From assembly GCA_016934095.1 (NCBI GenBank), contig JAFGTO010000244.1, positions 1-12,398 of the forward strand: DNA of 12,398 nucleotides, in the 5' to 3' direction. The position numbers were made by a program, and so were the translations under genes. Shown here in pieces: positions 3 to 12,398 of the stretch (its first letter is position 1; every line of letters begins with the position of its first letter). The stretch comes from Candidatus Glassbacteria bacterium. GTDB lineage: Bacteria > Gemmatimonadota > Glassbacteria > GWA2-58-10. The notes beneath the pieces are model-generated. The model did not search any database, was not told the DNA's origin, and saw only the letters and a list, made by a program, of their open reading frames with translations.

Positions 3-1916
3 TTCCGCAGCAACCGGAAGAACCTCGACCGGATGCTGTACAGCAAGGGAGCCGCCCTGATGGAGTCGGTGCTGCACGACGCTGAGAACGCAGTGCTTGC
101 AGAGCGCGAGATCTCGGAACAGCTCGCCTCCCGCCTGGCGGATAACGCCAGGTACGCCCTGATGCTGGCCGACCGGGGAGCGCAGGCCGGGCGGTCGCTG
201 GCAGCCGCGGCCGCGGAGAACGGGCTGGTCCGCCTGGAGGTGTACGGTCCGGACGGGGGACTGATCGCAACTAGCGACCCGCGCGGCTCACCCGGAATGC
301 TGCCCGCATCCCTGGATGGCCTGGCCGCCGGGGATGAGCCGCTTATCAGGCTGATCCAGGACCCGGCGGGATCCGGGAACGAGCTCCTGGCGGCCGCCGT
401 GCGGGGTGGGGACGGCCGGGCGGGAGTGGCCTATGCCCTGTCGGATGAGCTCTTCGCGCTCCAGCGCCGGCTGGGAATCGGCCTGATCCTCGACGACCTC
501 TCCGCAGTGGAGGGGGTGGCTTACGCCGTGCTCCAGGACACTCTGGGGATCATCGCGGCCTCGAGCGACGTGGTGGAAATCGGCAGTATCGGCAAGGACC
601 CGTTCTTCCCCCTGGCCGCCGGGGAGATCAAGGGGCGCCGCCTGGATTTCTTCGGCGAGGAGGTCTACGAGCTGGCCGCCCTGTTCCAGCTCGGCGGCGA
701 GAGTTTCGGTTACCTGAGGGTCGGGCTCTCGACTGAAGAAGTACGCTCGATTGCCGAGCTGGACCGCAAGAGGTTCGGTTTCGGCATGGCGGTGCTGGCC
801 GTGCTGGCCGCGGTGGCTGTGCTGCTCTACTTTTTCCGCCTCCGCCACCTGCACCTGGAGCAGGAGCACTCGCGCATCAAGAGCTTCTCGGACAGCGTGC
901 TCGAATCCATGGGCGATGCGGTGATTGTCGCCGACCGGGACGGCAGGGTCCTGCTGGTCAACCGTGTCGCCGAAAAGCTATGCGGCACCGACCGGCCGCC
1001 CCTGCCGGGCCGCATGCTCTCGGAGGTGGCTCCCGGCCTGGCGGAAAAGCTCGGAAGCCTGGACACAGATGAGCCGCTGGTCTTGGAGACCGAGCTGCCC
1101 CGGCCCGGCTCTGCAGGACCGCTGCCCGTGCTGGCCACCGCCTCACCCTTATTGGTTGCCGGCAGCCGCTACACTACGGTTATCCTGCGCGACCTGACCG
1201 ACCGCAAGCGCGCCGAGGAGCTGGCCCTGCGCAACGAGAAGTACCAGGTCATGGCCGAGGTCTCGGCCTCGGTGGCCCACGAGATCCGCAACCCGCTCAA
1301 CGCGATCGGGATGAATGTCCAGCGCCTCAAGATGGAGTTCACCCCGCAGGAGGGGAGCCGGGGAGAATACGAGGAGTTCATCGAGATAATCCGCCGCGAG
1401 GTGGAGAGGATCAACGGGATAGTCGAACAGTACCTGACCCTGGCCCGTTTCCCCGGGCCGAAAAAAGAAATGGCGAGGATCGACAGGCTGCTGGCCGATA
1501 CCCTGCAGTTTTTCGCTGCCGAGCTCGCCGGGCGGCGGATCGCGGTGAAAGCGGATATCGCGCCCGCCGGGCCGTTCCCTTTCGATCCCGGGCAGTTGAG
1601 ACAGGTTTTCACCAACCTGATCAAGAACGCCGCCGAAGCCATTGAAAGCGAGGGGACCCTGCTGGTGGCCGGACGCCCGCTGCCGGGGTACTACCAGGTC
1701 TCCGTGCAGGACAGCGGCCCCGGGATCCCCGCAAGCGTGCGGGACAAGGTTTTCGAGCCGTTTTTCAGCACCAAGCAAAGTGGGCTGGGTCTTGGATTGG
1801 CCATTGTCCAGCGCATTGTCGCCGAGCACGGGGGTAATATATCCCTGGAAAGCAGCGGCCGGCCGGGGACCACTTTCGTGGTCACCCTGCCTGCAGACAA
1901 GGAGGATAAAACATGA
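3..1916 (+). CDS. Sensor histidine kinase (periplasmic sensor domain, TM, PAS, HisKA, HATPase_c); 5' end probably truncated by the window edge
   Basis: Frame is open from base 3 and the first in-window Met is at 33. There is no RBS before 33 and no N-terminal TM, so the true start is probably upstream. TM segment FGFGMAVLAVLAAVAVLLYFF. PAS-like SVLESMGDAVIVADRDGRVLLVN. H-box SASVAHEIRNPLNAIGMNVQRL. N-box LIKNAAEAI. G-boxes QDSGPGIP and GLGLGLAIVQRIVAEHGG. Strong GC3 codon bias. Confidence 0.85.
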   Translation, partial: FRSNRKNLDRMLYSKGAALMESVLHDAENAVLAEREISEQLASRLADNARYALMLADRGAQAGRSLAAAAAENGLVRLEVYGPDGGLIATSDPRGSPGMLPASLDGLAAGDEPLIRLIQDPAGSGNELLAAAVRGGDGRAGVAYALSDELFALQRRLGIGLILDDLSAVEGVAYAVLQDTLGIIAASSDVVEIGSIGKDPFFPLAAGEIKGRRLDFFGEEVYELAALFQLGGESFGYLRVGLSTEEVRSIAELDRKRFGFGMAVLAVLAAVAVLLYFFRLRHLHLEQEHSRIKSFSDSVLESMGDAVIVADRDGRVLLVNRVAEKLCGTDRPPLPGRMLSEVAPGLAEKLGSLDTDEPLVLETELPRPGSAGPLPVLATASPLLVAGSRYTTVILRDLTDRKRAEELALRNEKYQVMAEVSASVAHEIRNPLNAIGMNVQRLKMEFTPQEGSRGEYEEFIEIIRREVERINGIVEQYLTLARFPGPKKEMARIDRLLADTLQFFAAELAGRRIAVKADIAPAGPFPFDPGQLRQVFTNLIKNAAEAIESEGTLLVAGRPLPGYYQVSVQDSGPGIPASVRDKVFEPFFSTKQSGLGLGLAIVQRIVAEHGGNISLESSGRPGTTFVVTLPADKEDKT

Positions 1917-3268
1917 AAAGCCACCGTATCCTGGTGGTGGAGGACGAGGAGAACCAGCGCCGCACCCTGGCCGGTTTCCTGAGGAAAAAGGGTTACCGGA
2001 CCGAAGAGGCCCCTTCCGGGGAGGCCGCCCTGGAGCTTGTCCGCAAGCACCTTTACGACCTGGTCCTGACCGACCAGAAAATGGGGGGCATCGGCGGCCT
2101 GGAGCTGCTCAGGGAGGTCAAGGCCGCCAACCCGGAAATCGAGGTGGTCCTGCTGACCGCCTTCGGAGACCTCCGCTCCGCGGTCCAGGCGGTCCGCCAG
2201 GGCGCTTTCGACTACCTGGCCAAGCCGGTGGACCTGGAAGAGCTGGAGCTGACCCTCGAGCGGGCCCTGGAGCGCAGGCAGCTCGTGGTGGAAAACCGGA
2301 TGCTTCGCGAGTCGCTCGGCGAGCGGCAGAGCTTCGAGGAGATCATCTCCGTCAGCGATGCCATGGAGTCTGTGCTCAACATGGCTTCCCGGGTGGCCCG
2401 GGTCGACTCTCCCGTGCTGATCACCGGGGAGTCCGGCACCGGCAAGGAGATGGTGGCCAAGACGATCCACCAGGCCAGCGTGCGCAGGGACCAGCCTTTC
2501 GTGGCGGTAAACTGCGCCGCCCTGAACCAGAACCTCATCGAGAGCGAGCTGTTCGGCCACGAGAAAGGGGCCTTCACCGGCGCCATCCGTCAGCGCCAAG
2601 GCAAACTCGAGTCCGCCGACAGGGGGACCCTGTTCCTCGATGAGCTCGGGGAGATCAGCCCCGAGATCCAGGTTAAACTGCTGCGCTTTCTCCAAGAGCA
2701 CTCGTTCGAGCGGGTCGGCTCGGACCAGGTGCAGCAGGCGGACGTGCGCCTGATCGCCGCTACCAACCGCGACCTGGAGGCAGCCATCCGTCAGGGCGAT
2801 TTCCGCGAAGATTTCTACTACCGGATCAACGTGGTCAATATCCAGATCCCGCCCCTGCGCTCGCGCAGGGAGGACATCCGCCCGCTGATTGATTTCTTCC
2901 TGCAGAGAAACCGCGAGCGTCTCGGGCCGAAGACCTTCTCCAGGCAGGCGCTCGACTCCCTGCTGCGCTACGATTTCCCGGGAAACATCCGGGAGCTGCA
3001 GAACGTGGTCGAGCGGGCCATGGTGCTGGCCAGGAACGAGGTGGTCGACCTGGCCGACCTGCCCCCCTCGGTCACTGCCAGACAGGATAACTTTCCCGGT
3101 GTCCGCGAAATCGGCGGCTCGCTCACCGAGGAGATAGAGAACCTGGAAAGGCGCATGATTACCGCCGCCCTGGAATCCTGCGACAAGGTTCAGGTGCGGG
3201 CCGCGGAAAAGCTGGGAATCACGGAAAGGAACCTGCGCTACAAGATGAAAAAGCTGGGAATCAAATAA
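1913..3268 (+). CDS. Sigma-54-dependent response regulator, NtrC/AtoC/ZraR family (REC + AAA+ sigma-54 activator + Fis-type HTH)
   Basis: Start ATG 1913 overlaps the kinase stop TGA 1914-1916 (ATGA coupling), with a GGAGGA RBS at 1901-1906. REC domain with phospho-acceptor LVLTDQKMGG. Walker A GESGTGKE. GAFTGA motif ESELFGHEKGAFTGA. Walker B/arginine-finger region. C-terminal HTH AAEKLGITERNLRYKMKKLGI. Confidence 0.9.
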   Translation: MKSHRILVVEDEENQRRTLAGFLRKKGYRTEEAPSGEAALELVRKHLYDLVLTDQKMGGIGGLELLREVKAANPEIEVVLLTAFGDLRSAVQAVRQGAFDYLAKPVDLEELELTLERALERRQLVVENRMLRESLGERQSFEEIISVSDAMESVLNMASRVARVDSPVLITGESGTGKEMVAKTIHQASVRRDQPFVAVNCAALNQNLIESELFGHEKGAFTGAIRQRQGKLESADRGTLFLDELGEISPEIQVKLLRFLQEHSFERVGSDQVQQADVRLIAATNRDLEAAIRQGDFREDFYYRINVVNIQIPPLRSRREDIRPLIDFFLQRNRERLGPKTFSRQALDSLLRYDFPGNIRELQNVVERAMVLARNEVVDLADLPPSVTARQDNFPGVREIGGSLTEEIENLERRMITAALESCDKVQVRAAEKLGITERNLRYKMKKLGIK

Positions 3269-3300: not shown

Positions 3301-3340
3301 TTCGACCAATTGGTCGAACAACTCTCGACAAAAATGTCGA
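3301..3340. promoter_or_regulatory. Tandem palindromes, candidate enhancer (UAS) sites for the adjacent NtrC-type activator
   Basis: Perfect 18-bp palindrome TTCGACCAATTGGTCGAA at 3301-3318. Second dyad TCGACA-AAAA-TGTCGA at 3325-3340. Centres lie about 160 and about 140 bp upstream of the predicted sigma-54 start site. An AT-rich tract between them and the promoter (3341-3440) is typical of a bending region. Confidence 0.45.
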
Positions 3341-3446: not shown

Positions 3447-3461
3447 TGGCACCGTTCTTGA
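3447..3461 (+). promoter_or_regulatory. Sigma-54 (-24/-12) promoter candidate
   Basis: TGGCACC-GTTC-TTGA matches TGGCACG-N4-TTGCW. The GG and GA(C) elements have the exact 10-nt spacing, with only the -12 C replaced by A. It lies about 75 bp upstream of ATG 3537, directly downstream of a sigma-54 activator gene. Confidence 0.55.
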
Positions 3462-3536: not shown

Positions 3537-4388
3537 ATGAAAACCCTGAAAATTCTGCCGGTAATCACTTTTATCGGCGCATTGATGACTTTGAATCCCG
3601 GACTGTACGCCCAGGATGCCGATGACGCAGCCGCGGACGATGGGGCCGCTGTAGCGACGCCCCTGGGCGGAGCCTACCGCCACGGCATGAGGGATGTCGG
3701 GTTCCGCGGCTTTACCGACGAGGACGGCAACGGGCTCAACGACTATCTAGAGGACTCGGACGGCGACGGGGTGGTCAACGCCCACGACCCGGACAGCGAC
3801 CTTTATCGCGGCGAGCCGGGTACGGCTCTGGGACGCGGCCTGGGCTTCGTGGATGAGGACGGCAACGGGCTCAACGACTATCTAGAGGACTCGGACGGCG
3901 ACGGGGTGATCAACGCCCACGACTCCGACAGCCCGCTCTACCGCGACCCCCGCGCCAGGGGCGCTTTCGGGCGCGGCCTGAGCTTTGTGGATGAGGACGG
4001 CAACGGGATCAACGACCGTCTCGAGGACTCGGACGGCGACGGGGTGATCAACGCCCACGACCCGGACAGCCCGCTCTACCGCGACCCCAGCGCCAGGGGC
4101 GTTTTCGGGCGCAGGCTCCGCTTCATCGATGAGAACGGCGACGGTGTCAGCGACTGCCTCGAGGACTCGGACGGCGACGGGGTGATCAACTCCCTCGACC
4201 CCGACAGCCCGCTGTATCGCGGCAGCGCGGCCGGGAACACGGTCAGGGGCGCACGCCTCGGCTCGGCCGGCAAGACTGTCATGCAGCGCGGGTCGGCTTT
4301 CAGCGGACAGTCGCGCTCTACCGGAAGGGCAAGAGTGAGAACGCCCGGGAGCTGCACAACCGCTCCCGCCGGCAGCGGCAGCAATTAA
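3537..4388 (+). CDS. Secreted acidic repeat protein with tandem DxDxDG (thrombospondin type 3 / EF-hand-like) calcium-binding loops
   Basis: RBS AGAGGAGG at 3524-3530. Signal peptide MKTLKILPVITFIGALMTLNPGLYA|QD. About 3.7 copies of a 45-46 aa unit EDGNGLNDYLEDSDGDGVINAHDPDSPLYRDP.ARGAFGRGLSFVD. Each unit carries two back-to-back 12-residue loops, DEDGNGLNDYLE and DSDGDGVINAHD, fitting DxDxDGxxDxxE/D. Confidence 0.8.
   Translation: MKTLKILPVITFIGALMTLNPGLYAQDADDAAADDGAAVATPLGGAYRHGMRDVGFRGFTDEDGNGLNDYLEDSDGDGVVNAHDPDSDLYRGEPGTALGRGLGFVDEDGNGLNDYLEDSDGDGVINAHDSDSPLYRDPRARGAFGRGLSFVDEDGNGINDRLEDSDGDGVINAHDPDSPLYRDPSARGVFGRRLRFIDENGDGVSDCLEDSDGDGVINSLDPDSPLYRGSAAGNTVRGARLGSAGKTVMQRGSAFSGQSRSTGRARVRTPGSCTTAPAGSGSN
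3720..4217 (+). repeat. In-frame tandem DNA repeat, 135-138 bp unit, about 3.7 copies, inside CDS 3537-4388
   Basis: Units begin at 3720, 3855, 3993 and 4131 with GAGGACGGCAACGGG...GAGGACTCGGACGGCGACGGGGTG(A/G)TCAACGCCCACGAC. Copies 1-3 are nearly identical at the nucleotide level and copy 4 is more diverged. Confidence 0.85.
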
Positions 4389-4405
4389 CGATTCTGCAGT
4401 TCTGC

Positions 4406-4437
4406 AGCCCGGGAGCCTCGTACCCGAGGCTCCCGGG
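4406..4437 (+). terminator. GC-rich hairpin (14-bp stem, 4-nt loop) between the two repeat-protein genes; possible intra-operon attenuator or partial terminator
   Basis: GCCCGGGAGCCTCG-TACC-CGAGGCTCCCGGGC is a perfect inverted repeat 18 nt after stop 4388, preceded by the direct repeat TTCTGCAG x2. It is followed by an A-rich tract (AGATAAAACAAACAAAA) rather than a U-tract, so it is not a canonical intrinsic terminator. Confidence 0.35.
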
Positions 4438-4464
4438 CAGATAAAACAAACAAAATCACGGATC

Positions 4465-5136
4465 ATGGGTAAAAGAATTACATACGGCGCGGCAGTGGCG
4501 ATTTTTCTTTTTTGCGGCACTCTTTCCGCACAGCAGGAAAAGGCCCGGCCGGAGACTCGGAAATCAACGGTCCAGCCCGGCGGGTCCGCAGCCCAAAAAG
4601 CAGCCGACAATAAAGAACCCCAGACGCCTGTCGCCGTATTCGGCTTCCAGGACCGGGACCGCGACGGCAAGAACGACCTGTTCCGGGACGCCGACGGCGA
4701 CGGGATCAACGATATCACCAAGAAACCCTACCCTCACAAGTTCAAGTTCGCAGATGAGGACGAGGATAAAATCAACGACTTGTTCGTGGATGCCGACGGC
4801 GACGGGGTGAACGACCTTGAAGTCAAGTTTATCGATGCCGACAGCGACGGGATCAACGACAATATCATCGATGTCGACAAGAACCATATCAACGACATCA
4901 CCGGCCTGCGCTATACCAGCAAGTCCCTGCGGGGGTACAAGTACGGTTTTATCAAGGAGGAGCGCCTGCTGATGATGCGCGGCTTCATCGATGAAGACGG
5001 GGACGGGATCGCGGATGCACCCCGGGGCATGATGCTCAGAAAAGGCATGCGCGACCGGATTATCGACCGGGACGGCGACGGGATCGACGACAGGAGGGAG
5101 ATGATGCGCAAATTCAGACCAGGACCCAGGAGATAG
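4465..5136 (+). CDS. Secreted paralogous DxDGDG-loop repeat protein (degenerate Ca-binding loop repeats)
   Basis: Signal peptide MGKRITYGAAVAIFLFCGTLSA|QQ. Loops DRDRDGKND, DADGDGINDI, DEDEDKINDL, DADGDGVNDL, DADSDGINDN, DEDGDGIADA, DRDGDGIDDR. Codon composition is more AT-rich than the first paralog. Ends TAG 5134-5136, 3 nt before the next start. Confidence 0.75.
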   Translation: MGKRITYGAAVAIFLFCGTLSAQQEKARPETRKSTVQPGGSAAQKAADNKEPQTPVAVFGFQDRDRDGKNDLFRDADGDGINDITKKPYPHKFKFADEDEDKINDLFVDADGDGVNDLEVKFIDADSDGINDNIIDVDKNHINDITGLRYTSKSLRGYKYGFIKEERLLMMRGFIDEDGDGIADAPRGMMLRKGMRDRIIDRDGDGIDDRREMMRKFRPGPRR

Positions 5137-5139
5137 GCA

Positions 5140-6405
5140 ATGAAAAAATTCGGCTTGCTAGGCCTGATACCGCTTTTCCTCTGGGCCGGGATGCTCCGGG
5201 CCCAGAAAGAAGTCAGCGTGGGGACCCACATGCTGGCTGACGACAATATCTTCCGCAACCACACAGGACAGGGCGACTTTGTCGCTGTACCTTACGCCGA
5301 CCTAGGCTACCAGTTCAGTCCCGGCCAGGACACGGAGACACTGGACCTGTTCTACCTAGGCTATTCAGGGCAGTTTTTCCTTTTCCGCGAGCTGAGCCGG
5401 AGGGACTTCTCCGTGCACGGCTTCTCCGCACACTACAACCACCTCTGGCCCGAGTCGCGCAACCTGCTCGCTGTCGGCGGCAAGGTGGAAACCAGGCTCA
5501 ACCCGGAAGACTACAAGTATTTCAACTATACCTCGGGCGGATTTTACCTGAACTACAAGAGATACCTCAGGGAAGACCTGATGCTGCTGGCCGGGTACAA
5601 CCTTACCGGCAAGAACTTTTCCGAATTCCCGGAGTTCAATTACCTGGAAAACATCTTTTCCATCCAGACCAGCCTGTTCCTGCAATCCAGGACCACCCTG
5701 CGGTTTTCCGCCAATTACTACCACAAGAACTACCTCAACAGTATCTCTACTCTGGACTCGGTTTTTGTCGAGCCGCCCCCGGTTTCCGGGCCCATGCCCG
5801 GCATGGGCTATGGATACGGCCGCGGGATGTTCCTCAGGAACCTGTTCCCGGAGGATGTTGGCGAAGGTTTCTACTCGTACCGCATGCGTGCCGATGAATT
5901 CCCCAGCACCGACCAGTTCAAGCTGGGTTTCACAGTGGCCCAGGGCCTGGCCGAGGGCACGGGGATCACCGCGGGCTACACCGCCCGGCTCAACCCCCGC
6001 AACCGCAACCGCTACCTGTCCAACCTCGGCGAATCGGTGCTGAACAATGAAGAGCTTTTCGACGACCACTACAGCTACCTGGGCCACGAGGGCACTTTGC
6101 AGCTCAAGCAAATGCTGCCTGCAGAGTCGATACTGACCCTGATGTTCACCGTGCGCAGCCGCCGTTTCAGCGACCGGCCAGCCCTGGACCTCGAGGGCTA
6201 CCCGCTGCCCTCCGGAGAGGACCGGCGGGACAGGGCTGTGCTTTTCGAGGCCGAGTTCACCAAGCGGCTCAGGCCCGGCATTTCCTGGATCACCGACAAC
6301 CTCGAGCTCTCGGTCGGGTTCGGCCTGGGCAGCAACAGCTCGAACGACCAGTATTACGATTTCAACGACAAATATTTCATTTTCGCCCTGGAAAAAGCCT
6401 TCTAG
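5140..6405 (+). CDS. Putative outer-membrane beta-barrel protein (no heme motif)
   Basis: RBS AGGAGA at 5126-5131. Signal peptide MKKFGLLGLIPLFLWAGMLRA|QKE. High Tyr/Gly/Asn/Ser content with alternating aromatic/hydrophobic patterning typical of amphipathic beta-strands. C-terminus ...YFIFALEKAF ends in Phe as in Bam-dependent OMPs. Co-transcribed with the two repeat proteins. Confidence 0.7.
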   Translation: MKKFGLLGLIPLFLWAGMLRAQKEVSVGTHMLADDNIFRNHTGQGDFVAVPYADLGYQFSPGQDTETLDLFYLGYSGQFFLFRELSRRDFSVHGFSAHYNHLWPESRNLLAVGGKVETRLNPEDYKYFNYTSGGFYLNYKRYLREDLMLLAGYNLTGKNFSEFPEFNYLENIFSIQTSLFLQSRTTLRFSANYYHKNYLNSISTLDSVFVEPPPVSGPMPGMGYGYGRGMFLRNLFPEDVGEGFYSYRMRADEFPSTDQFKLGFTVAQGLAEGTGITAGYTARLNPRNRNRYLSNLGESVLNNEELFDDHYSYLGHEGTLQLKQMLPAESILTLMFTVRSRRFSDRPALDLEGYPLPSGEDRRDRAVLFEAEFTKRLRPGISWITDNLELSVGFGLGSNSSNDQYYDFNDKYFIFALEKAF

Positions 6406-6534
6406 CTCCGCCCTCTCCGCGACCTGGCGCAAGGGAATCCCGTGCCCCCTGCCTCATGCCGCTGCATTTTCTCCGCCCCTCACCATTTTCATGATACAGC
6501 GGACTCACTGTAGCCCGGATACGGTCAATAAGTC

Positions 6535-6563: not shown

Positions 6564-6669
6564 TTAACAGAGCCGCAAAAATGACCTCCGGGCCCGCCCT
6601 CTCGAGCCCGGCGCCAAATACTTTCAGGCGAAGACATCCTTGAACCTGCCCATCAGAGAGGAGTTTTCC

Positions 6670-7038
6670 ATGAGCAGTACTTATCATGAACCATCCCAGG
6701 AGCTGCCTCCGGAAGTCCGCGATACCCATCGCGCACTGGCGAGCCTGATCGAAGAGCTGGAGGCTATCGACTGGTATAACCAGCGGGCCTCTCTCACCAC
6801 CGACCCGGAGCTCAAAGAGATTGTCCAGCACAACCGGGACGAGGAAATCGAACATGCGGCCATGGCCCTGGAATGGCTGCGCAGGAGGATCCCCAAATTC
6901 GACGAGGAACTGAAGACCTACCTGTTCTCTTCCGGCCCCATTACCGAAATAGAAGAAGCCCTGGCAAAAGAACCTGCTGAAAACGACGCGCCGGCCCCGG
7001 GCAGCCTGGGAATCGGCTCGCTGCGAAAGGAGAGCTGA
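6670..7038 (+). CDS. Encapsulated ferritin-like protein (EncFtn) with C-terminal encapsulin cargo-loading peptide
   Basis: RBS AGAGGAG at 6654-6660, 9 nt before ATG 6670. The track start at 6640 is a TTG with no RBS, so 6670 is preferred. EncFtn signature EELEAIDWYNQRA...DPELKEIVQHNRDEEIEHAAMALEWLRRR (metal-binding Glu/His residues). C-terminal tail ...PGSLGIGSLRKES matches the GSLxIGSLK-type encapsulin targeting peptide. The stop lies 2 nt before the shell gene. Confidence 0.85.
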   Translation: MSSTYHEPSQELPPEVRDTHRALASLIEELEAIDWYNQRASLTTDPELKEIVQHNRDEEIEHAAMALEWLRRRIPKFDEELKTYLFSSGPITEIEEALAKEPAENDAPAPGSLGIGSLRKES

Positions 7039-7040
7039 CG

Positions 7041-7841
7041 ATGAGCGACATTCTGCGACGTTCACTGGCTCCGCTGACGGAAGCCGCCTGGAAGGAAATC
7101 GACAGGACGGCCTCGAACATCCTCAAAGCAAGCCTCACCGGGCGCAAGCTGGTTGACTGCGACGGGCCCCACGGCCTGGAGCTGGGTGCGGTGAACCTGG
7201 GCCGCCTGGCAATCCCCGAGAAACATAAGAGGGCGGGTGTAAGCTGGGGCGTGCGCGAGGTGCTGCCGCTGGTGGAGTTACGGGTACCCTTCCAGCTCGA
7301 CCAGATGGAGCTGGACTCGATCTCCAGGGGCTCGAAGGATGTCGACCTGGGTCCGCTGGAAAAAGCCGCCAGGGCAGTGGTCGATTTCGAGGAATCCGCA
7401 ATCTACAAAGGCTTTCCGGAGGCCAGGGTCCAGGGCATACTCAAAGCCGCAAAACACGCCCCGCTCAAGATCCCCGCCGCACGCGAAGACTGCCCCAAGG
7501 CCGTGGCCGAGGGGATCAAGCTGCTGTCCGAGGCGGGAATCGAGGGGCCTTACGCGCTGGTCCTCTGCCTGGAGTGCTACCATGAGCTGATCGCCACCGC
7601 CAAGGGATACCCTACTTTCCGGGTGGCGGAGCGCCTGGTGGAAGGCGGGATATTCTACAGCAGCGCCCTCAAGGGCGGCGTGCTGCTGTCCGTGCGCGGC
7701 GGAGATTTCGAGCTGACCCTGGGCCAGGATATCTCCATCGGCTTCTCGGGCTGCACCGCGGACAAAGTGGAGCTCTATTTTGCCGAGTCTTTCACTTTCC
7801 GCGTGCTGGAGCCGCTGGCCGCTGTCGAGCTGAAACCCTGA
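7041..7841 (+). CDS. Family 1 encapsulin nanocompartment shell protein (HK97 fold; Linocin_M18 family)
   Basis: RBS AAAGGAGAG at 7026-7034. Sequence is collinear with the T. maritima encapsulin: LRRSLAPLTEAAWKEID, GRKLVDCDGPHG, WGVREVLPLVELRVPFQL..ELD..RG..DVDLGPLE, GIEGPYALV, RGGDFELTLGQDISIGF, ESFTFRVLEP. The 266-aa length is typical. Confidence 0.9.
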   Translation: MSDILRRSLAPLTEAAWKEIDRTASNILKASLTGRKLVDCDGPHGLELGAVNLGRLAIPEKHKRAGVSWGVREVLPLVELRVPFQLDQMELDSISRGSKDVDLGPLEKAARAVVDFEESAIYKGFPEARVQGILKAAKHAPLKIPAAREDCPKAVAEGIKLLSEAGIEGPYALVLCLECYHELIATAKGYPTFRVAERLVEGGIFYSSALKGGVLLSVRGGDFELTLGQDISIGFSGCTADKVELYFAESFTFRVLEPLAAVELKP

Positions 7842-7899: not shown

Positions 7900-7935
7900 G
7901 GGGCACATTTATGCATGTGCCCCATTTTATTCTCC
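7900..7935 (+). terminator. Rho-independent terminator after the encapsulin operon
   Basis: GGGGCACAT-TTATGC-ATGTGCCCC (9-bp stem, 6-nt loop) followed by ATTTTATTCT, about 60 bp after stop 7841. Confidence 0.6.
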
Positions 7936-8111: not shown

Positions 8112-9473
8112 ATGCGATCAGCCCGTAAAGTCTTAGCTGTCGTTGTCATTGGCACGGTTGTGGCGGGAGCGGGCTTACTGGCCCAGGTCAAGGCAGGCGA
8201 CGCCGCCCATGGCACCAGGCAGTACGACCAGTATAAAAAACCCAAGTTCTGCGGTACTTCCTGCCATACCGACTTCTATCGCCAGTGGCGCCAGGAGATG
8301 CACTCCCAGGCCTATGTCCACCACTGGGACGAGATCGAGTATTTCAAGCTGGCCGTGCCCCACGCGGAAAAAGACCCGGCCGTGGCCGGGGTCAGGGATG
8401 GCTGTAATGGCTGCCATGCGCCGGTGTCTTTCCTGGCGGGCGACACCCCTCCGCCCAGGCCCGAGGAAAACAGCCGGGCCAACGAAGCTGTCACCTGCGA
8501 CCTGTGCCATACTATCACCGGTTTCGAGTCAGACACTCCCCACAACTTCAACTATTATTCCGAGCCGGGGAACGTGAAATACGGGCCCAGGGGCGGGGTA
8601 ACCTCTCCTGAGCACGTGATCGAGGTCAGCAAGTTCCTGCCTTCCGCAGAGTTCTGCGGCACCTGCCATAACGAGAAAAGCCCTTACGGGGTATGGGTCA
8701 AATCGACCCACCTCGAGTGGAAGGAAGGGCCTTACGCAGCCGAGGGAGTCCCCTGCCACGACTGCCACATGCCAAGGGCCGAGGGCAGGAGGGCCTCGAT
8801 GGGTAAGGCCTACCCGGACATCCGTCAGCACCTGTTCCACGGCGCTCACGACAACGGCAAGATCAGGGGCACGGTGGAGCTGCGCATCCACCCGGATATC
8901 GATGAGACCGAGCCGGGCGAAAAAGTGGTCTTTACCGTGGTGCTCTTCAACCAGAAAGCCGGCCACAAGTTCCCCACCGGCTCGGTGGAGGACCGGATTG
9001 TCTGGCTGCATGTCGAGGCCACCGATGCCCAGGGCAAGGTCTATCACCTGCCGGTGGACCCCAAGGGTTTCGAGGGGGAAGAGTATACGATCGCCCGGGA
9101 CGTCCTGGCCTACCAGGACATGGGCATAGCGCTGAACGACCCCGGCTTCCAGGGCGTGCAGCGGGATGGGGTCCCGGTGGGAGACCGTATTTTCCGCATG
9201 CCCTATTTCGACCCCCAGGGCCGGATGACGATCCAGCAGTGGAACACCAAGAGCCTGGGTGTAGACTACCGGATACCCCCCAGGGGTACCAGGGTGGAGA
9301 CTTTCTCCTTCAGCCTGCCGTTCGAGGTCGCCCCGGGCAGGATGACTGTCGAAGCCACGCTCAACTACAGCAAGCTGGTCAAACCGGTGGCAGAGCTGCT
9401 CGAGGTGCCGCCGGATGAAACTGAAACAGTTGTGGTCAACGAGCATTCTACCGTAATCAACGTATTCGACTGA
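8112..9473 (+). CDS. Multiheme c-type cytochrome (five heme-binding motifs) with a C-terminal heme-free, probably beta-sandwich, domain
   Basis: Signal or anchor peptide MRSARKVLAVVVIGTVVAGAGLLAQVKA. Heme motifs CGTSCH (CX3CH), CNGCH, CDLCH, CGTCH and CHDCHMP. The GVPCHDCHMPRAEG segment resembles the NrfA-family CxDCHMP heme, but the family's distal heme is missing. The last about 200 aa are Cys-free. Confidence 0.85.
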   Translation: MRSARKVLAVVVIGTVVAGAGLLAQVKAGDAAHGTRQYDQYKKPKFCGTSCHTDFYRQWRQEMHSQAYVHHWDEIEYFKLAVPHAEKDPAVAGVRDGCNGCHAPVSFLAGDTPPPRPEENSRANEAVTCDLCHTITGFESDTPHNFNYYSEPGNVKYGPRGGVTSPEHVIEVSKFLPSAEFCGTCHNEKSPYGVWVKSTHLEWKEGPYAAEGVPCHDCHMPRAEGRRASMGKAYPDIRQHLFHGAHDNGKIRGTVELRIHPDIDETEPGEKVVFTVVLFNQKAGHKFPTGSVEDRIVWLHVEATDAQGKVYHLPVDPKGFEGEEYTIARDVLAYQDMGIALNDPGFQGVQRDGVPVGDRIFRMPYFDPQGRMTIQQWNTKSLGVDYRIPPRGTRVETFSFSLPFEVAPGRMTVEATLNYSKLVKPVAELLEVPPDETETVVVNEHSTVINVFD

Positions 9474-9483
9474 AGAAGGAAAA

Positions 9484-10665
9484 ATGAAAAAAAAGACGTT
9501 TTACACCCTGGTCTTTTCCCTGGCGGCCGCCGGTCTGTGTTCCATCTTTACGGCCGAGTCCGCCTATGCTGTCCCGGCTTTCGCCAGGAAATACCGGCTG
9601 AGCTGCAAGACCTGCCACCAGCCGATCCCCAGGCTGAAACCTTATGGGGATGAATTCGCCGGCAACGGTTTCGTGCTCACCGACCAGGAAGCGCCCAGGT
9701 ATTTTGTCGAGACCGGGGACGACGAGCTCTCGCTGATCCGGGATTTCCCCATCGCCGTGCGCCTGGAAGGGTTCATCAACTACAACGACGTGGCGGGAAA
9801 AAGGTCGGACTTCAACACTCCATACCTGTTGAAGCTGCTCTCCGGCGGGGCCCTGACCAAAAACATCGCCTATTACTTCTATTTCTACATGGATGAGAGA
9901 GGAGAGGTGGCCGGTGTCGAGGACGCCTATGTCATGTTCAACAACCTGCTGGGAGTCGACCTGGATATCTACGCAGGCCAGTTCCAGGTCTCCGACCCCC
10001 TGTTCAAGCGGGAGCTGCGCCTGACCCTGGAGGACTACCAGGCCTACAAGTCCACTCCGGGCCGCTCGGGGATAAACCTGACCTATGACAGGGGTATCAT
10101 GGTAACTTACGGGTTGCCCAGCGGCACCGACCTGATTTTCGAGGTGGTCAACGGCAACGGCTTGAGCGAGGCGGACGAGGACAAGAACTTCGACTCCGAC
10201 AGGTACAAGAATTTCATGGGACGCATCTCCCAGGATGTCGGTAAATACCTGCGCCTGGGTGTGTTCGGCTACACCGGCCGGGAAAAGAGCGCCGGCCGGC
10301 TGAACCAGGCCTGGCTGGCCGGTCCCGACCTGACAGTGTCAATCAACGAAAAGTTCGAGCTGAACCTGCAGTATGTCGAGAGAAGGGACACCAACCCTTA
10401 TTTCCTCAGCTCCGGCTACCGGGACCTCAAGACCAGGGGCGCGCTCGGCGAGATGGTGATCGCCCCCCGGGGCAGCGACGGCAAGGTCTACCTGGTGGGG
10501 CTGTTCAACTGGACAGACTCGGACGACAATTCGGAGGATTTCAAGAGCCTGACCGGTCATCTCAGCTACCTGCTGCGCAGGAACATCCGTCTGGTCGGCG
10601 AGGTAACCCACAACTGGGCCAATGATACCAACCGCCTCGGCGTGGGTTTTGTCTCGGCGTTCTAG
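9484..10665 (+). CDS. cyc2: Cyc2-like fused monoheme cytochrome c-porin (outer membrane; candidate Fe(II) oxidase or extracellular electron conduit)
   Basis: RBS GAAGGAAAA, start 11 nt after the cytochrome stop. Signal peptide MKKKTFYTLVFSLAAAGLCSIFTAESAYA|VP. A single CKTCH heme motif lies within 15 residues of the mature N-terminus inside PAFARKYRLSCKTCHQP, which matches the conserved N-terminal cytochrome module of Cyc2. The remaining about 340 aa are rich in Tyr/Gly/Asn beta-strand patterning and end GVGFVSAF (terminal Phe), consistent with a porin barrel. The family assignment is from memory, not from a search. Confidence 0.6.
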   Translation: MKKKTFYTLVFSLAAAGLCSIFTAESAYAVPAFARKYRLSCKTCHQPIPRLKPYGDEFAGNGFVLTDQEAPRYFVETGDDELSLIRDFPIAVRLEGFINYNDVAGKRSDFNTPYLLKLLSGGALTKNIAYYFYFYMDERGEVAGVEDAYVMFNNLLGVDLDIYAGQFQVSDPLFKRELRLTLEDYQAYKSTPGRSGINLTYDRGIMVTYGLPSGTDLIFEVVNGNGLSEADEDKNFDSDRYKNFMGRISQDVGKYLRLGVFGYTGREKSAGRLNQAWLAGPDLTVSINEKFELNLQYVERRDTNPYFLSSGYRDLKTRGALGEMVIAPRGSDGKVYLVGLFNWTDSDDNSEDFKSLTGHLSYLLRRNIRLVGEVTHNWANDTNRLGVGFVSAF

Positions 10666-11063: not shown

Positions 11064-11546
11064 ATGGACGAACAGCCACAAGCCGAATCATTGGGAAAGG
11101 TCCGCAATCCTGTGGTCATGGTACTCCTGTTGATCATCACCATAAATATTTACTGGGTTGTCTGGCTGTACAAGATATATTCCGAGATTCGCAGGCGGTC
11201 CACCGATGTTACCGGTGTAACCCCGGGTAAAGCCGCCGGTTTTATCTTCATCCCGGTATTCAATATCTTCTGGGCGTTCTATATCATCGTGGATTTCCCC
11301 CGCGCCATCCGCCGTCTCCAGGAGGCCGACCCGCCCACCGGGAATCTCCTGAACAACTCTCTGGTAGTGATCCTGCTGATCGTGGGCTTGCTGATCAACA
11401 TTATTATTGCCCAATTCCAGCCTGCTTTCCTGCTGCTGGGCGAAATACTGCTGATTGCAGGTCTGCTGATGTCGCAAGAGGCCCTGAACGGCCATTGGCG
11501 GGCACATCAAGCCGCAGCGGGCGGGCCGGCGCCGGAGCAATCCTGA
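11064..11546 (+). CDS. Small polytopic membrane protein, DUF4234-like, with an internal duplication
   Basis: Strong RBS AAGGAGG at 11051-11057. Two homologous halves, NPVVMVLLLIITINIYWVVWLYKIYSEIRR and AAGFIFIPVFNIFWAFYIIVDFPRAIRR, each with an IY/IF-W-x-x-Y motif as in DUF4234-family proteins. Two further hydrophobic helices follow. Codon usage is markedly AT-richer than neighbouring genes. Confidence 0.65.
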   Translation: MDEQPQAESLGKVRNPVVMVLLLIITINIYWVVWLYKIYSEIRRRSTDVTGVTPGKAAGFIFIPVFNIFWAFYIIVDFPRAIRRLQEADPPTGNLLNNSLVVILLIVGLLINIIIAQFQPAFLLLGEILLIAGLLMSQEALNGHWRAHQAAAGGPAPEQS

Positions 11547-11851
11547 GCAGTCGCGGTCGAAGCGGGCACCAGGCTTAATTCGGGCTCATGTCCGGACCCG
11601 GACAGGCACGCCCTGAGAAAACTTTTTCATAAGACGGTAACCTTGCAGCCGGCAACAACGTTAAACGTTCGACAGTGTTCAAAATGACCTGTCTTGTTCC
11701 CTGCTTCAATGAGCATAAGACAGCCGTCCGGAAATAAATTACTGGTTTTTCCCGGCCTGCCAGCGGTATGCCGCCAGTCCCGCTTACCCCACAGGCAGGC
11801 CGCCTCCAACTGACAACGTGCATTACCGCACTTCCCGAGCTTGCAGACAAG

Positions 11852-12398
11852 ATGACCCGGCTTACCCTGCGCATACCGGCGTTTTTGCTGCTGTTGCTGA
11901 CCGCTTTTCCCGGCATTGGCGAGCTTTCGGGGAAGGTGTTTTTCAGCGGCAGCTCCCAGTCTCTTTTCTACTACCTGGAAAACTACCCCGGCAGCGGCGG
12001 CCAGGGCTCGGTCTGCAATTTCAGGTCCTACGAGTCGGTGAGGATGAAGCTGGTCGGCAGGGGCAGCAAGAACAGCCTGGGTTTCCATACTTTTTTTCGC
12101 ACCAGCCAGGATCTGAATGTCGATTACGAAGAGGACCCGCTGCACCGCCTCTACAACGGCTACCTGGAGTGGATACACGGCCGCTTCAGCGCCGCCGCGG
12201 GCCGCCAGTGGCTGCACCTGGGAGTGGGGAGCCTCACCCTGGACGGGGCGAAAGTGAGCTATACGGACCCGCGCTATCTCGAGGTTACCGGCTACCTGGG
12301 CACGGAGAGTCCCTACACCCGACATTTCAGCCTCAGCGGTTGGGACAGGGCCAGGGCCGGGGGAGTCTACCTGAGCAGCAAAGCGCTCAAGCCGCTCA
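11852..12398 (+). CDS. Secreted protein of unknown function, 3' partial (runs off the window); possibly an outer-membrane beta-barrel
   Basis: Open + frame with strong GC3 bias. It is not in the ORF track because it has no stop in the window. Signal peptide MTRLTLRIPAFLLLLLTAFPGIGELSG. Tyr/Gly/Ser-rich alternating pattern (FFSGSSQSLFYYLENYPGSGG...). An alternative in-frame ATG at 11768 gives a poorer signal peptide. It overlaps and is preferred over the antisense track ORF 11627-12325. Confidence 0.55.
   Translation, partial: MTRLTLRIPAFLLLLLTAFPGIGELSGKVFFSGSSQSLFYYLENYPGSGGQGSVCNFRSYESVRMKLVGRGSKNSLGFHTFFRTSQDLNVDYEEDPLHRLYNGYLEWIHGRFSAAAGRQWLHLGVGSLTLDGAKVSYTDPRYLEVTGYLGTESPYTRHFSLSGWDRARAGGVYLSSKALKPL

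Follow-up and report, generated by a model that had tools for sequence, protein, structure and literature searches.

Among described systems, the one closest to the locus reported here is ZraSR-ZraP of the Enterobacteria, in which a periplasmic-sensor kinase and an NtrC-type regulator are encoded next to the gene for an exported metal-associated protein, and the promoter is of the sigma-54 type. We found a similar arrangement in a metagenome-assembled genome (MAG) of Candidatus Glassbacteria. The window analyzed here is one whole contig of 12,398 bp, in which a sensor histidine kinase and a sigma-54 response regulator precede two genes for proteins rich in DxDxDG loops (proteins A and B) and one gene for a predicted outer-membrane beta-barrel (protein C). 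The kinase, the regulator, one or two poly-DxDxDG proteins, and the barrel form a conserved five-gene module. Its parts are of known kinds, their combination is an undescribed one with three unannotated protein families, and our literature searches returned no description of it.

The conservation of the module was followed by a homolog scan at one genome per species, which confirmed 127 relatives, and 80 loci were fetched. We annotated 86 non-redundant loci with hidden Markov models made from alignments of A, B, and C; separate look-ups that started from B homologs added a Latescibacterota locus and loci of two further lineages. An A/B-type gene lies directly 5' of the C gene in 65 of the 75 loci with enough upstream sequence, at a median gap of −4 nt. 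In 37 loci, the stop and start codons overlap, which indicates translational coupling of the C gene with the A/B genes and, through it, suggests a stoichiometric partnership. Orthologs of both the kinase and the regulator are present within 6 kb in 35 of the 44 loci that have at least 6 kb of flanking sequence on each side. Furthermore, unbiased clustering of the neighboring open reading frames (ORFs) recovered C in 86 loci, A/B in 67, the regulator in 65, and the kinase in 61; the next neighbors were a cytochrome (13), a Cyc2-type gene (10), and DUF2202 (6), and no common partner emerged beyond A/B, the regulator, and the kinase. An earlier reading of this DNA made from the letters alone (hereafter, the sequence-only reading) had joined the trio A-B-C to the two-component system, and that grouping proved to be widely kept across genomes.

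To judge by record titles, the module occurs in Glassbacteria/Gemmatimonadales, Ignavibacteriota, Bacteroidota, KSB1, Calditrichota, Zhuqueibacter, Latescibacterota, and Marinimicrobia-like organisms. In a set of 1.84 billion representatives, the homologs of C fall into 799 clusters when grouped at 50% identity. The gene order is kinase-regulator-A-B-C, regulator-miniA-miniB-C-kinase (mini standing for one-unit forms), or divergent. In loci L040, L051, and L071 (KSB1 and Calditrichota), two barrel paralogs flank the two-component system, one behind an A-type gene and the other behind a B-type gene, which suggests that each loop protein has a barrel partner of its own. Other neighbors recur in only a few loci and were set aside as lineage-specific and outside the module; these are an [FeFe]-hydrogenase, a Nuo51-like protein, an ABC ATPase, a C92 peptidase, a type IX secretion-tailed protein, and a TonB receptor.

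In the window, A, B, and C lie on the + strand exactly where the sequence-only reading had placed them (Table 1). The intergenic gaps are 76 bp between A and B and 3 bp between B and C, and no +-strand terminator lies within the operon, all of which supports the co-transcription that had been proposed. Control by the adjacent sigma-54 two-component system, the other part of that proposal, is similarly supported by a promoter and tandem palindromes that are conserved in 54 loci. The sigma-54 site is located 76 nt 5' of the start codon of A, and the two palindromes lie 145 and 122 bp 5' of the sigma-54 site. A palindrome pair together with a sigma-54 site is the standard enhancer-plus-promoter layout for a sigma-54 activator. 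At one mismatch or fewer, TCGAC-N6-GTCGA occurs 4 times in the window against 0.43 expected, and the only two exact copies are both intergenic. Paired sites of this kind, 20–23 bp apart, were found in 54 loci that represent six or more phylum-level lineages, and they lie 65–199 bp (mostly 75–146 bp) 5' of the sigma-54 site. Of 83 loci, 72 have a TGGCAC-N5-TTG[C/A/T] site in front of the operon, the background rate of sigma-54-type sites being 0.046 per kb, and the promoter sequence is identical or nearly so in the Glassbacteria loci L003, L005, and L006. We infer that the adjacent, co-conserved regulator is the protein that binds the TCGAC-N6-GTCGA palindromes.

Table 1. Features of the 12,398-bp window, in order of position.
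Feature	Position	Strand	Description
Sensor histidine kinase, 5'-truncated	3–1916	+	Pfam PAS, HisKA, HATPase_c
NtrC-family sigma-54 response regulator	1913–3268	+	Pfam Response_reg, Sigma54_activat (5.9e-73), HTH_8
Upstream activating site 1	3302–3317	+	Palindrome TCGACCAATTGGTCGA; exact TCGAC-N6-GTCGA
Upstream activating site 2	3325–3340	+	Palindrome TCGACAAAAATGTCGA; exact TCGAC-N6-GTCGA; starts 23 bp after site 1
Sigma-54 promoter	3447–3461	+	TGGCACCGTTCTTGA; TGGCAC-N5-TTGA; −24 GG, −12 GA
Protein A	3537–4388	+	283 aa; Sec signal, four tandem 46-aa units, basic Gly/Arg tail
Protein B	4465–5136	+	223 aa; Sec signal, 6–7 DxDxDG loops, basic tail
Protein C	5140–6405	+	421 aa; predicted outer-membrane beta-barrel, 16–18 strands, C-terminal Phe
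Encapsulated ferritin	6640–7038	+	TIGR04535, 153.5 bits (cut-off 125); Pfam EncFtn-like
Family 1 encapsulin shell	7041–7841	+	NF041155, 280.3 bits (cut-off 100); Pfam Linocin_M18
Strong terminator	7900–7923		3' of the shell gene
Pentaheme c-type cytochrome	8112–9473	+	Four CxxCH, plus one CxxxCH read from the translation
Cyc2-type fused cytochrome-porin	9484–10665	+	393 aa, one CxxCH
DUF4328/DUF4234 membrane protein	11064–11546	+	

The kinase frame is open from base 3; the contig begins within the gene and thus lacks the part for the first transmembrane (TM) segment. What remains comprises, in order, a periplasmic sensor of ~250 aa, TM2, PAS, HisKA, and HATPase. In full-length orthologs of 670–690 aa, two TM segments enclose a conserved domain in the periplasm, in which the motifs GIG, LQD, and LRxGL are invariant, and through these orthologs the claim of a periplasmic-sensing kinase is borne out.

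Proteins A and B both start with Sec-type signal sequences, as had been noted; by inspection, these end LYA/QD in A and LSA/QQ in B, and the corresponding end in C is LRA/QK. The D-x-[DN]-x-[DN]-G loop occurs 8 times in A, twice per unit, and the DNA of A contains a tandem repeat at 3720–4221 (period 138 bp, 3.7 copies, 86% matches). The number of units ranges from 2 to 5 among the orthologs of A, indicating that the array expands and contracts. B has 6 strict D-x-[DN]-x-[DN]-G loops, or 7 if one position is relaxed. With the composition kept, shuffled versions of A contain 0.28 loops and those of B 0.15, and in none of 20,000 shuffles was the actual count attained; at 6–10 loops per protein, the numbers are far beyond chance. 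The loops are thus real, but the description of both proteins as built almost entirely from them was an overstatement, as the loops account for little more than a third of the mature proteins (37% in A, 36% in B). Likewise, "strongly acidic" suits A (pI 4.3, net charge −26) but not B, which is only mildly acidic (pI 5.3, net charge −7). A basic Gly/Arg/Lys C-terminal tail, present on both A and B, had escaped the sequence-only reading. The median net charge of the core is −30 in the A family and −15 in the B family, and that of the tail is +5 in both.

The alignment unit of the A family reads F[VI]DEDGDGIND..D.DGDGV.N..DPD and occurs in variable number, and the loop consensus is F-[VI]-D-x-D-G-D-G-[IV]-N-D. 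Loop position 9 is an Asp conserved to 99% in B and an Asp or Asn in A, and position 12 is Asp/Glu in 74% of the A loops and not acidic in B. The pattern corresponds to the generic Dx[DN]xDG calcium site (Rigden et al. 2011, PMC3123361), and judging by this motif, A and B probably bind metal cations. B is the best conserved of the three proteins, with 43 invariant columns in its alignment; its more than 424 homologs are 45–55% identical across phyla, are all called hypothetical, and have no Pfam domain. Two of its segments outside the loops, PYxHxFxF and ITGxxY..SLRGYxxG.I.EER, are conserved as well. One-unit "mini" versions of A and B are found in Ignavibacteriota and Bacteroidota. In lineages other than Glassbacteria, A-type proteins have one or more [C/K]DGTG[P] motifs in their Gly-rich basic tails, as in L016 (9216–9569), L036 (14901–15608), L088 (8422–8922), and proteins P0174 and P0178, and some such tails also have paired cysteines (CTGTGVC, CTGNC).

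Could the loop proteins be members of a known calcium-binding family? Thrombospondin type 3 (TSP3) repeats share with A (8 loops) and B (6–7 loops) the tandem arrangement of DxDxDGxxD loops, the Asp at loop position 9, and the lack of predicted helices. On the other hand, A and B of the window have no match to the TSP3 models PF02412 and PF18884 even at E ≤ 10, and their relatives reach 10–18 bits with TSP_3/TSP3_bac against a cut-off of 25. Moreover, the disulfide-forming cysteines of TSP3 are absent from A and B, F-[VI] stands before each loop, and B has its conserved non-loop segments and its own basic tail. The likeness to TSP3 therefore holds for the tandem loops, but with TSP_3/TSP3_bac below threshold it is not established. 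The EF-hand, in which helices flank a 12-residue loop that is acidic at position 12, does not fit either: A and B gave no EF-hand profile match, calmodulin appeared only at E = 0.41 in a profile search, the loops of B are not acidic at position 12, and the AlphaFold2 model of B (pLDDT 56) contains no helices or other regular secondary structure. Foldseek with the B model returned no match. For A, B, and C alike, searches of Pfam (E ≤ 10) and NCBIfam (E ≤ 1) gave nothing meaningful, and searches of the PDB, by single sequence and by profile, gave no match; weak profile matches to BamM, MtsD, Opp4A, SSSPR-51, and dockerin were far under the cut-off and were dropped. Consequently, the impression that none of the three belongs to a described family stands for Pfam, NCBIfam, and the PDB.

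Protein C had been read as a beta-barrel, and its AlphaFold2 model (pLDDT 79, pTM 0.73) agrees, with 18 strands by DSSP that start at residue 21. As shorter homologs are missing residues 205–250, the strand count there may be 16. The loop motifs NNEELFDDHYSY and NxSNDxYY are conserved. C resembles the OprD/Occ, AlgE, and TpsB (FhaC/CdiB) barrels in its fold of 16–18 strands, but its identity to them is 5–12% and the TM-score is about 0.45; unlike TpsB, it has no POTRA domains, and it has loop motifs of its own (EELFDDHY, NxSNDxYY). Three assignments were tried for C and rejected. A TpsB/Omp85 protein is contradicted by strands directly after the signal peptide and by the lack of a Pfam POTRA or ShlB match. 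A relative of Cyc2 is contradicted by an hhalign probability of 0.2% with the Cyc2-type protein and by the lack of a heme motif in C, and a conduit porin of the MtrB/OmbB/Ext kind, whose gene is paired directly with that of a periplasmic multiheme cytochrome, does not agree with a barrel whose obligatory partner is an A/B-type gene (65/75 loci, as above) and which has cytochromes nearby in only 26 of 89 loci.

How far does the parallel with ZraS/ZraR-ZraP, suggested by the sequence-only reading, extend? The promoter with regulator sites upstream of it (3302–3340) is as in ZraPSR. The nearest NCBIfam models are AtoC/ZraR for the regulator and AtoS/ZraS for the kinase, with the Zra models second best; however, all equivalog cut-offs were missed (ZraS 149 bits against 479, ZraR 421 bits against 760). 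Neither A nor B is a homolog of ZraP or gives an LTXXQ match in Pfam, the module has an obligatory outer-membrane barrel partner, and its hosts are Glassbacteria and allied, mostly FCB-group, phyla. In locus L086, on a 1.27-Mb metagenome contig, the slot of A (8197–8925) is occupied by a 242-aa protein with repeated LTXXQ motifs, followed by B and the barrel. This protein belongs to the CpxP/Spy/ZraP family (PF07813, 50.7 bits against a cut-off of 24.3) and shows a sub-threshold Heavy-metal resistance match; such a protein in the A slot was found in L086 only. Its position lends the Zra analogy independent support as a working mode, but not as membership.

The sequence-only reading had thought of Ca2+ and possibly of iron or other metals, and it had overlooked the iron-related genes (ferritin, cytochrome, and Cyc2) downstream of C. 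The first two of these encode an encapsulated ferritin cargo and a family 1 encapsulin shell, both scoring above the family cut-offs (Table 1), and the C-terminus of the cargo, ...GSLGIGSLRKES, we take to be the encapsulin targeting peptide. The + strand is free of terminators from C to the ferritin gene, and the ferritin and encapsulin genes are possibly read through from the operon promoter. As the pair is absent at that position in the related loci fetched, it looks like a lineage-specific insertion.

The next two genes encode the pentaheme cytochrome and a candidate Cyc2. Cyc2 proteins are recognized by a signal peptide, the motif AxPxFAR[Q/K][T/Y], one CxxCH, PxL, and a size of no fewer than 365 residues (Keffer et al. 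2021, PMC8406198), and distant homologs still need testing (PMC8406198). The product of the gene at 9484–10665 reads AVPAFARKY-RLS-CKTCH-QPI-PRL and, by these defining motifs, is a predicted member of the Cyc2 type. Cyc2 in Ignavibacteriales is already known through FeGenie surveys (PMC8478452). The cytochrome gene was followed by the Cyc2-type gene in 59 of 59 related metagenome loci, and identity to the copies of Ignavibacteria and other Glassbacteria is 67–86% for the cytochrome and 50–77% for the Cyc2-type protein. The pair adjoins the module in Glassbacteria loci L005, L006, L009–L011, and L089–L091 and in Ignavibacteriaceae. In the latter, miniB-C is followed by a divergent regulator and kinase and then by an A-DUF2202-cytochrome-Cyc2 string (L036, 14901–19163; also L044, L052, L054, L061, L073, L095, L103, and others), the DUF2202 protein being a ferritin-like lipoprotein. 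Enhancer-like half-sites and a sigma-54-type site lie 5' of both gene strings there, and those before miniB-C, read by eye, are degenerate (TCGCC-N6-GTCGC, CGGCAC-N5-TTTGT).

When the cytochrome was taken as the starting point, an A/B-type gene was found less than 1.5 kb upstream in 20 of 53 loci, and the kinase and regulator within 7 kb in 12 of 25. When C was the anchor, multiheme cytochromes were found within 10 kb in 26 of 89 loci, sometimes directly downstream (e.g., in L037, L039, and L053). Ferritin-like genes are within the cluster in two phyla, as encapsulated ferritin here and as DUF2202 in Ignavibacteria. The association of the module with Cyc2-type and other cytochromes is thus recurrent, not obligatory. 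Separately, farther downstream in Glassbacteria loci L003 (11711–14968), L005 (14336–16508), and L009–L011 (15.6–18.8 kb), an unannotated protein of ~415 aa is followed by cytochromes with 11–14 heme motifs, and the stretch in L003 also has Rieske and cytochrome b genes; beside the module, the ~415-aa protein and these cytochromes look like a porin-cytochrome conduit.

Could the module be an inducible response of the envelope to metal cations, made of a buffer or chaperone plus a channel, and linked to iron in this genome? We give this reading a probability of roughly one half, on sequence grounds. From the gene content and cis-elements, and from their conservation and linkage, we infer a bound cation, a destination of A and B, a sensed signal, and a contact between A/B and C as follows. 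Divalent or trivalent metal cations in the envelope would be the periplasmically sensed cue that induces the operon. The kinase would sense it through its periplasmic domain and phosphorylate the NtrC-type regulator, which would occupy the two TCGAC-N6-GTCGA palindromes and switch on the sigma-54 promoter. The promoter would then drive the two Sec-exported proteins and the outer-membrane barrel. A and B, each predicted to combine an acidic core of Ca2+-type (hard-cation) DxDxDG loops with a short basic tail, would buffer, chaperone, or pass on the cations in the periplasm beside C as their dedicated channel, a logic resembling that of ZraS/ZraR-ZraP. Iron is the probable cation in the present Glassbacteria genome and in Ignavibacteria, where the module sits with the pentaheme cytochrome, the homolog of the Cyc2-type Fe(II) oxidase, and ferritin-like proteins; in Ignavibacteria, it also shares its enhancer-like and promoter elements with their genes. 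The recurrent linkage to ferritin and Cyc2-type genes makes iron, rather than calcium alone, the most likely cation here.

Several observations weigh against this metal-response reading. The alignment of the kinase sensor domain shows no conserved His/Cys cluster that would hint at a metal ligand, and A and B have no significant match to any of the calcium-binding family profiles searched. The model of B is of low confidence and so does not settle the fold of the loop proteins. The −12 element of the promoter is GA, the consensus being GC, although the site is still kept in the orthologous loci. Regarding iron in particular, 63 of the 89 C-anchored loci have no cytochrome nearby, so that iron is not a general explanation; L086–L088, which lie among housekeeping genes and have no cytochromes, speak against a purely iron-related role. 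Furthermore, no enhancer or sigma-54 signature lies directly upstream of the cytochrome-Cyc2 pair of the window, nor 5' of the ferritin or cytochrome gene in the window or its Glassbacteria orthologs. Direct control of these genes by the regulator is therefore unsupported here, and only read-through is possible.

An alternative that we consider rather unlikely treats the module as a dedicated part of iron oxidation. The two-component system would then sense Fe(II), C would admit Fe2+ or release Fe3+, and A and B would chelate Fe3+ and so prevent encrustation of the periplasm and surface. Loops rich in carboxylates, as in A and B, would suit a hard cation, e.g., Fe3+. In Ignavibacteria, moreover, an A-type gene heads the A-DUF2202-cytochrome-Cyc2 strings with an enhancer and promoter like those of the module. 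Of the cytochrome-anchored loci, 38–48% link the cytochrome-Cyc2 pair to the module, and in two phyla the cluster includes ferritin-like genes. However, about 70% of the module loci have no multiheme cytochrome within 10 kb, L086–L088 sit among housekeeping genes, the function of this Cyc2 clade is itself putative (PMC8406198 on distant homologs), and A, B, and C are outside any described Cyc2 pathway. A further reading, likewise rather unlikely, would make the kinase-regulator pair a dedicated Fe(II)-sensing system and the first identified regulator of Cyc2-type iron oxidation, recognizable in DNA by two TCGAC-N6-GTCGA sites ahead of a sigma-54 promoter. A, B, and C would then represent a novel class of Fe3+-binding, anti-encrustation envelope proteins shared by Glassbacteria, Ignavibacteria, and other uncultured sediment lineages.

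It is also conceivable, but not likely, that the loop proteins and the barrel are an export pair. C would serve as an outer-membrane translocon or anchor, and A and B would cross it or stay held by their basic tails. Disordered on the way out, A and B would fold on extracellular Ca2+ and form a surface matrix, an adhesin, or a coat by which mineral nucleation is controlled.

Far less probable is a response to low levels of divalent cations, in which scarcity of Ca2+ or Mg2+ would induce proteins that scavenge Ca2+ or stabilize the outer membrane. An outer-membrane barrel gene next to its two-component system recalls oprH next to phoPQ, A and B have Ca2+-type loops, and the basic tails could bridge anionic lipid. 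However, the module lacks homology to PhoPQ and OprH, its regulator belongs to the sigma-54 activators and not to the OmpR type, and the links to iron genes and to the LTXXQ protein fit a metal-excess stress better. Finally, that unrelated genes lie side by side behind an accidental sigma-54 site, as the off-consensus −12 element and the lack of family annotation for A, B, and C might suggest, is hardly credible and already contradicted by the conservation across phyla of the gene order, the overlapping codons, the promoter, and the paired enhancer.

Three families with no Pfam, NCBIfam, or PDB profile are thus tightly linked to defined cis-elements and to a two-component system. Sediment and groundwater are the habitats of the uncultured lineages in which the module recurs; their envelope stress systems are, to our knowledge, little studied, and it offers a concrete, testable envelope response in these poorly studied phyla. 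It also provides a candidate regulator, binding site, and promoter linked to Cyc2-type iron-oxidation genes; our literature searches found no paper on how Cyc2 expression is sensed or controlled in the lineages that carry the module. The enhancer-plus-promoter signature could serve for regulon mapping in any genome with the module.

Every convincing gene of the window is on the + strand. Reverse-strand ORFs over 3537–6405 (e.g., 3882–4721 and 5365–6432) were dismissed as artifacts of high G+C content, because the proteins of the + strand are kept across phyla. An Rfam search of the window found no RNA family. Protein C is 100% identical to JXQ83_06775. Two records that contain the module are titled "archaeon" (L009, DATKXY010000006.1) and "Synechococcus sp. 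UW140" (L080, CALRIY020000069.1); the outer-membrane barrel, the sigma-54 regulator, and the 57% identity to Glassbacteria suggest mislabeled or contaminated bins. After the gene for the DUF4328/DUF4234 membrane protein, an ORF with a signal peptide (MTRLTLRIPAFLLLLL...) at about 11850–12398 (+) runs past the 3' end of the contig.

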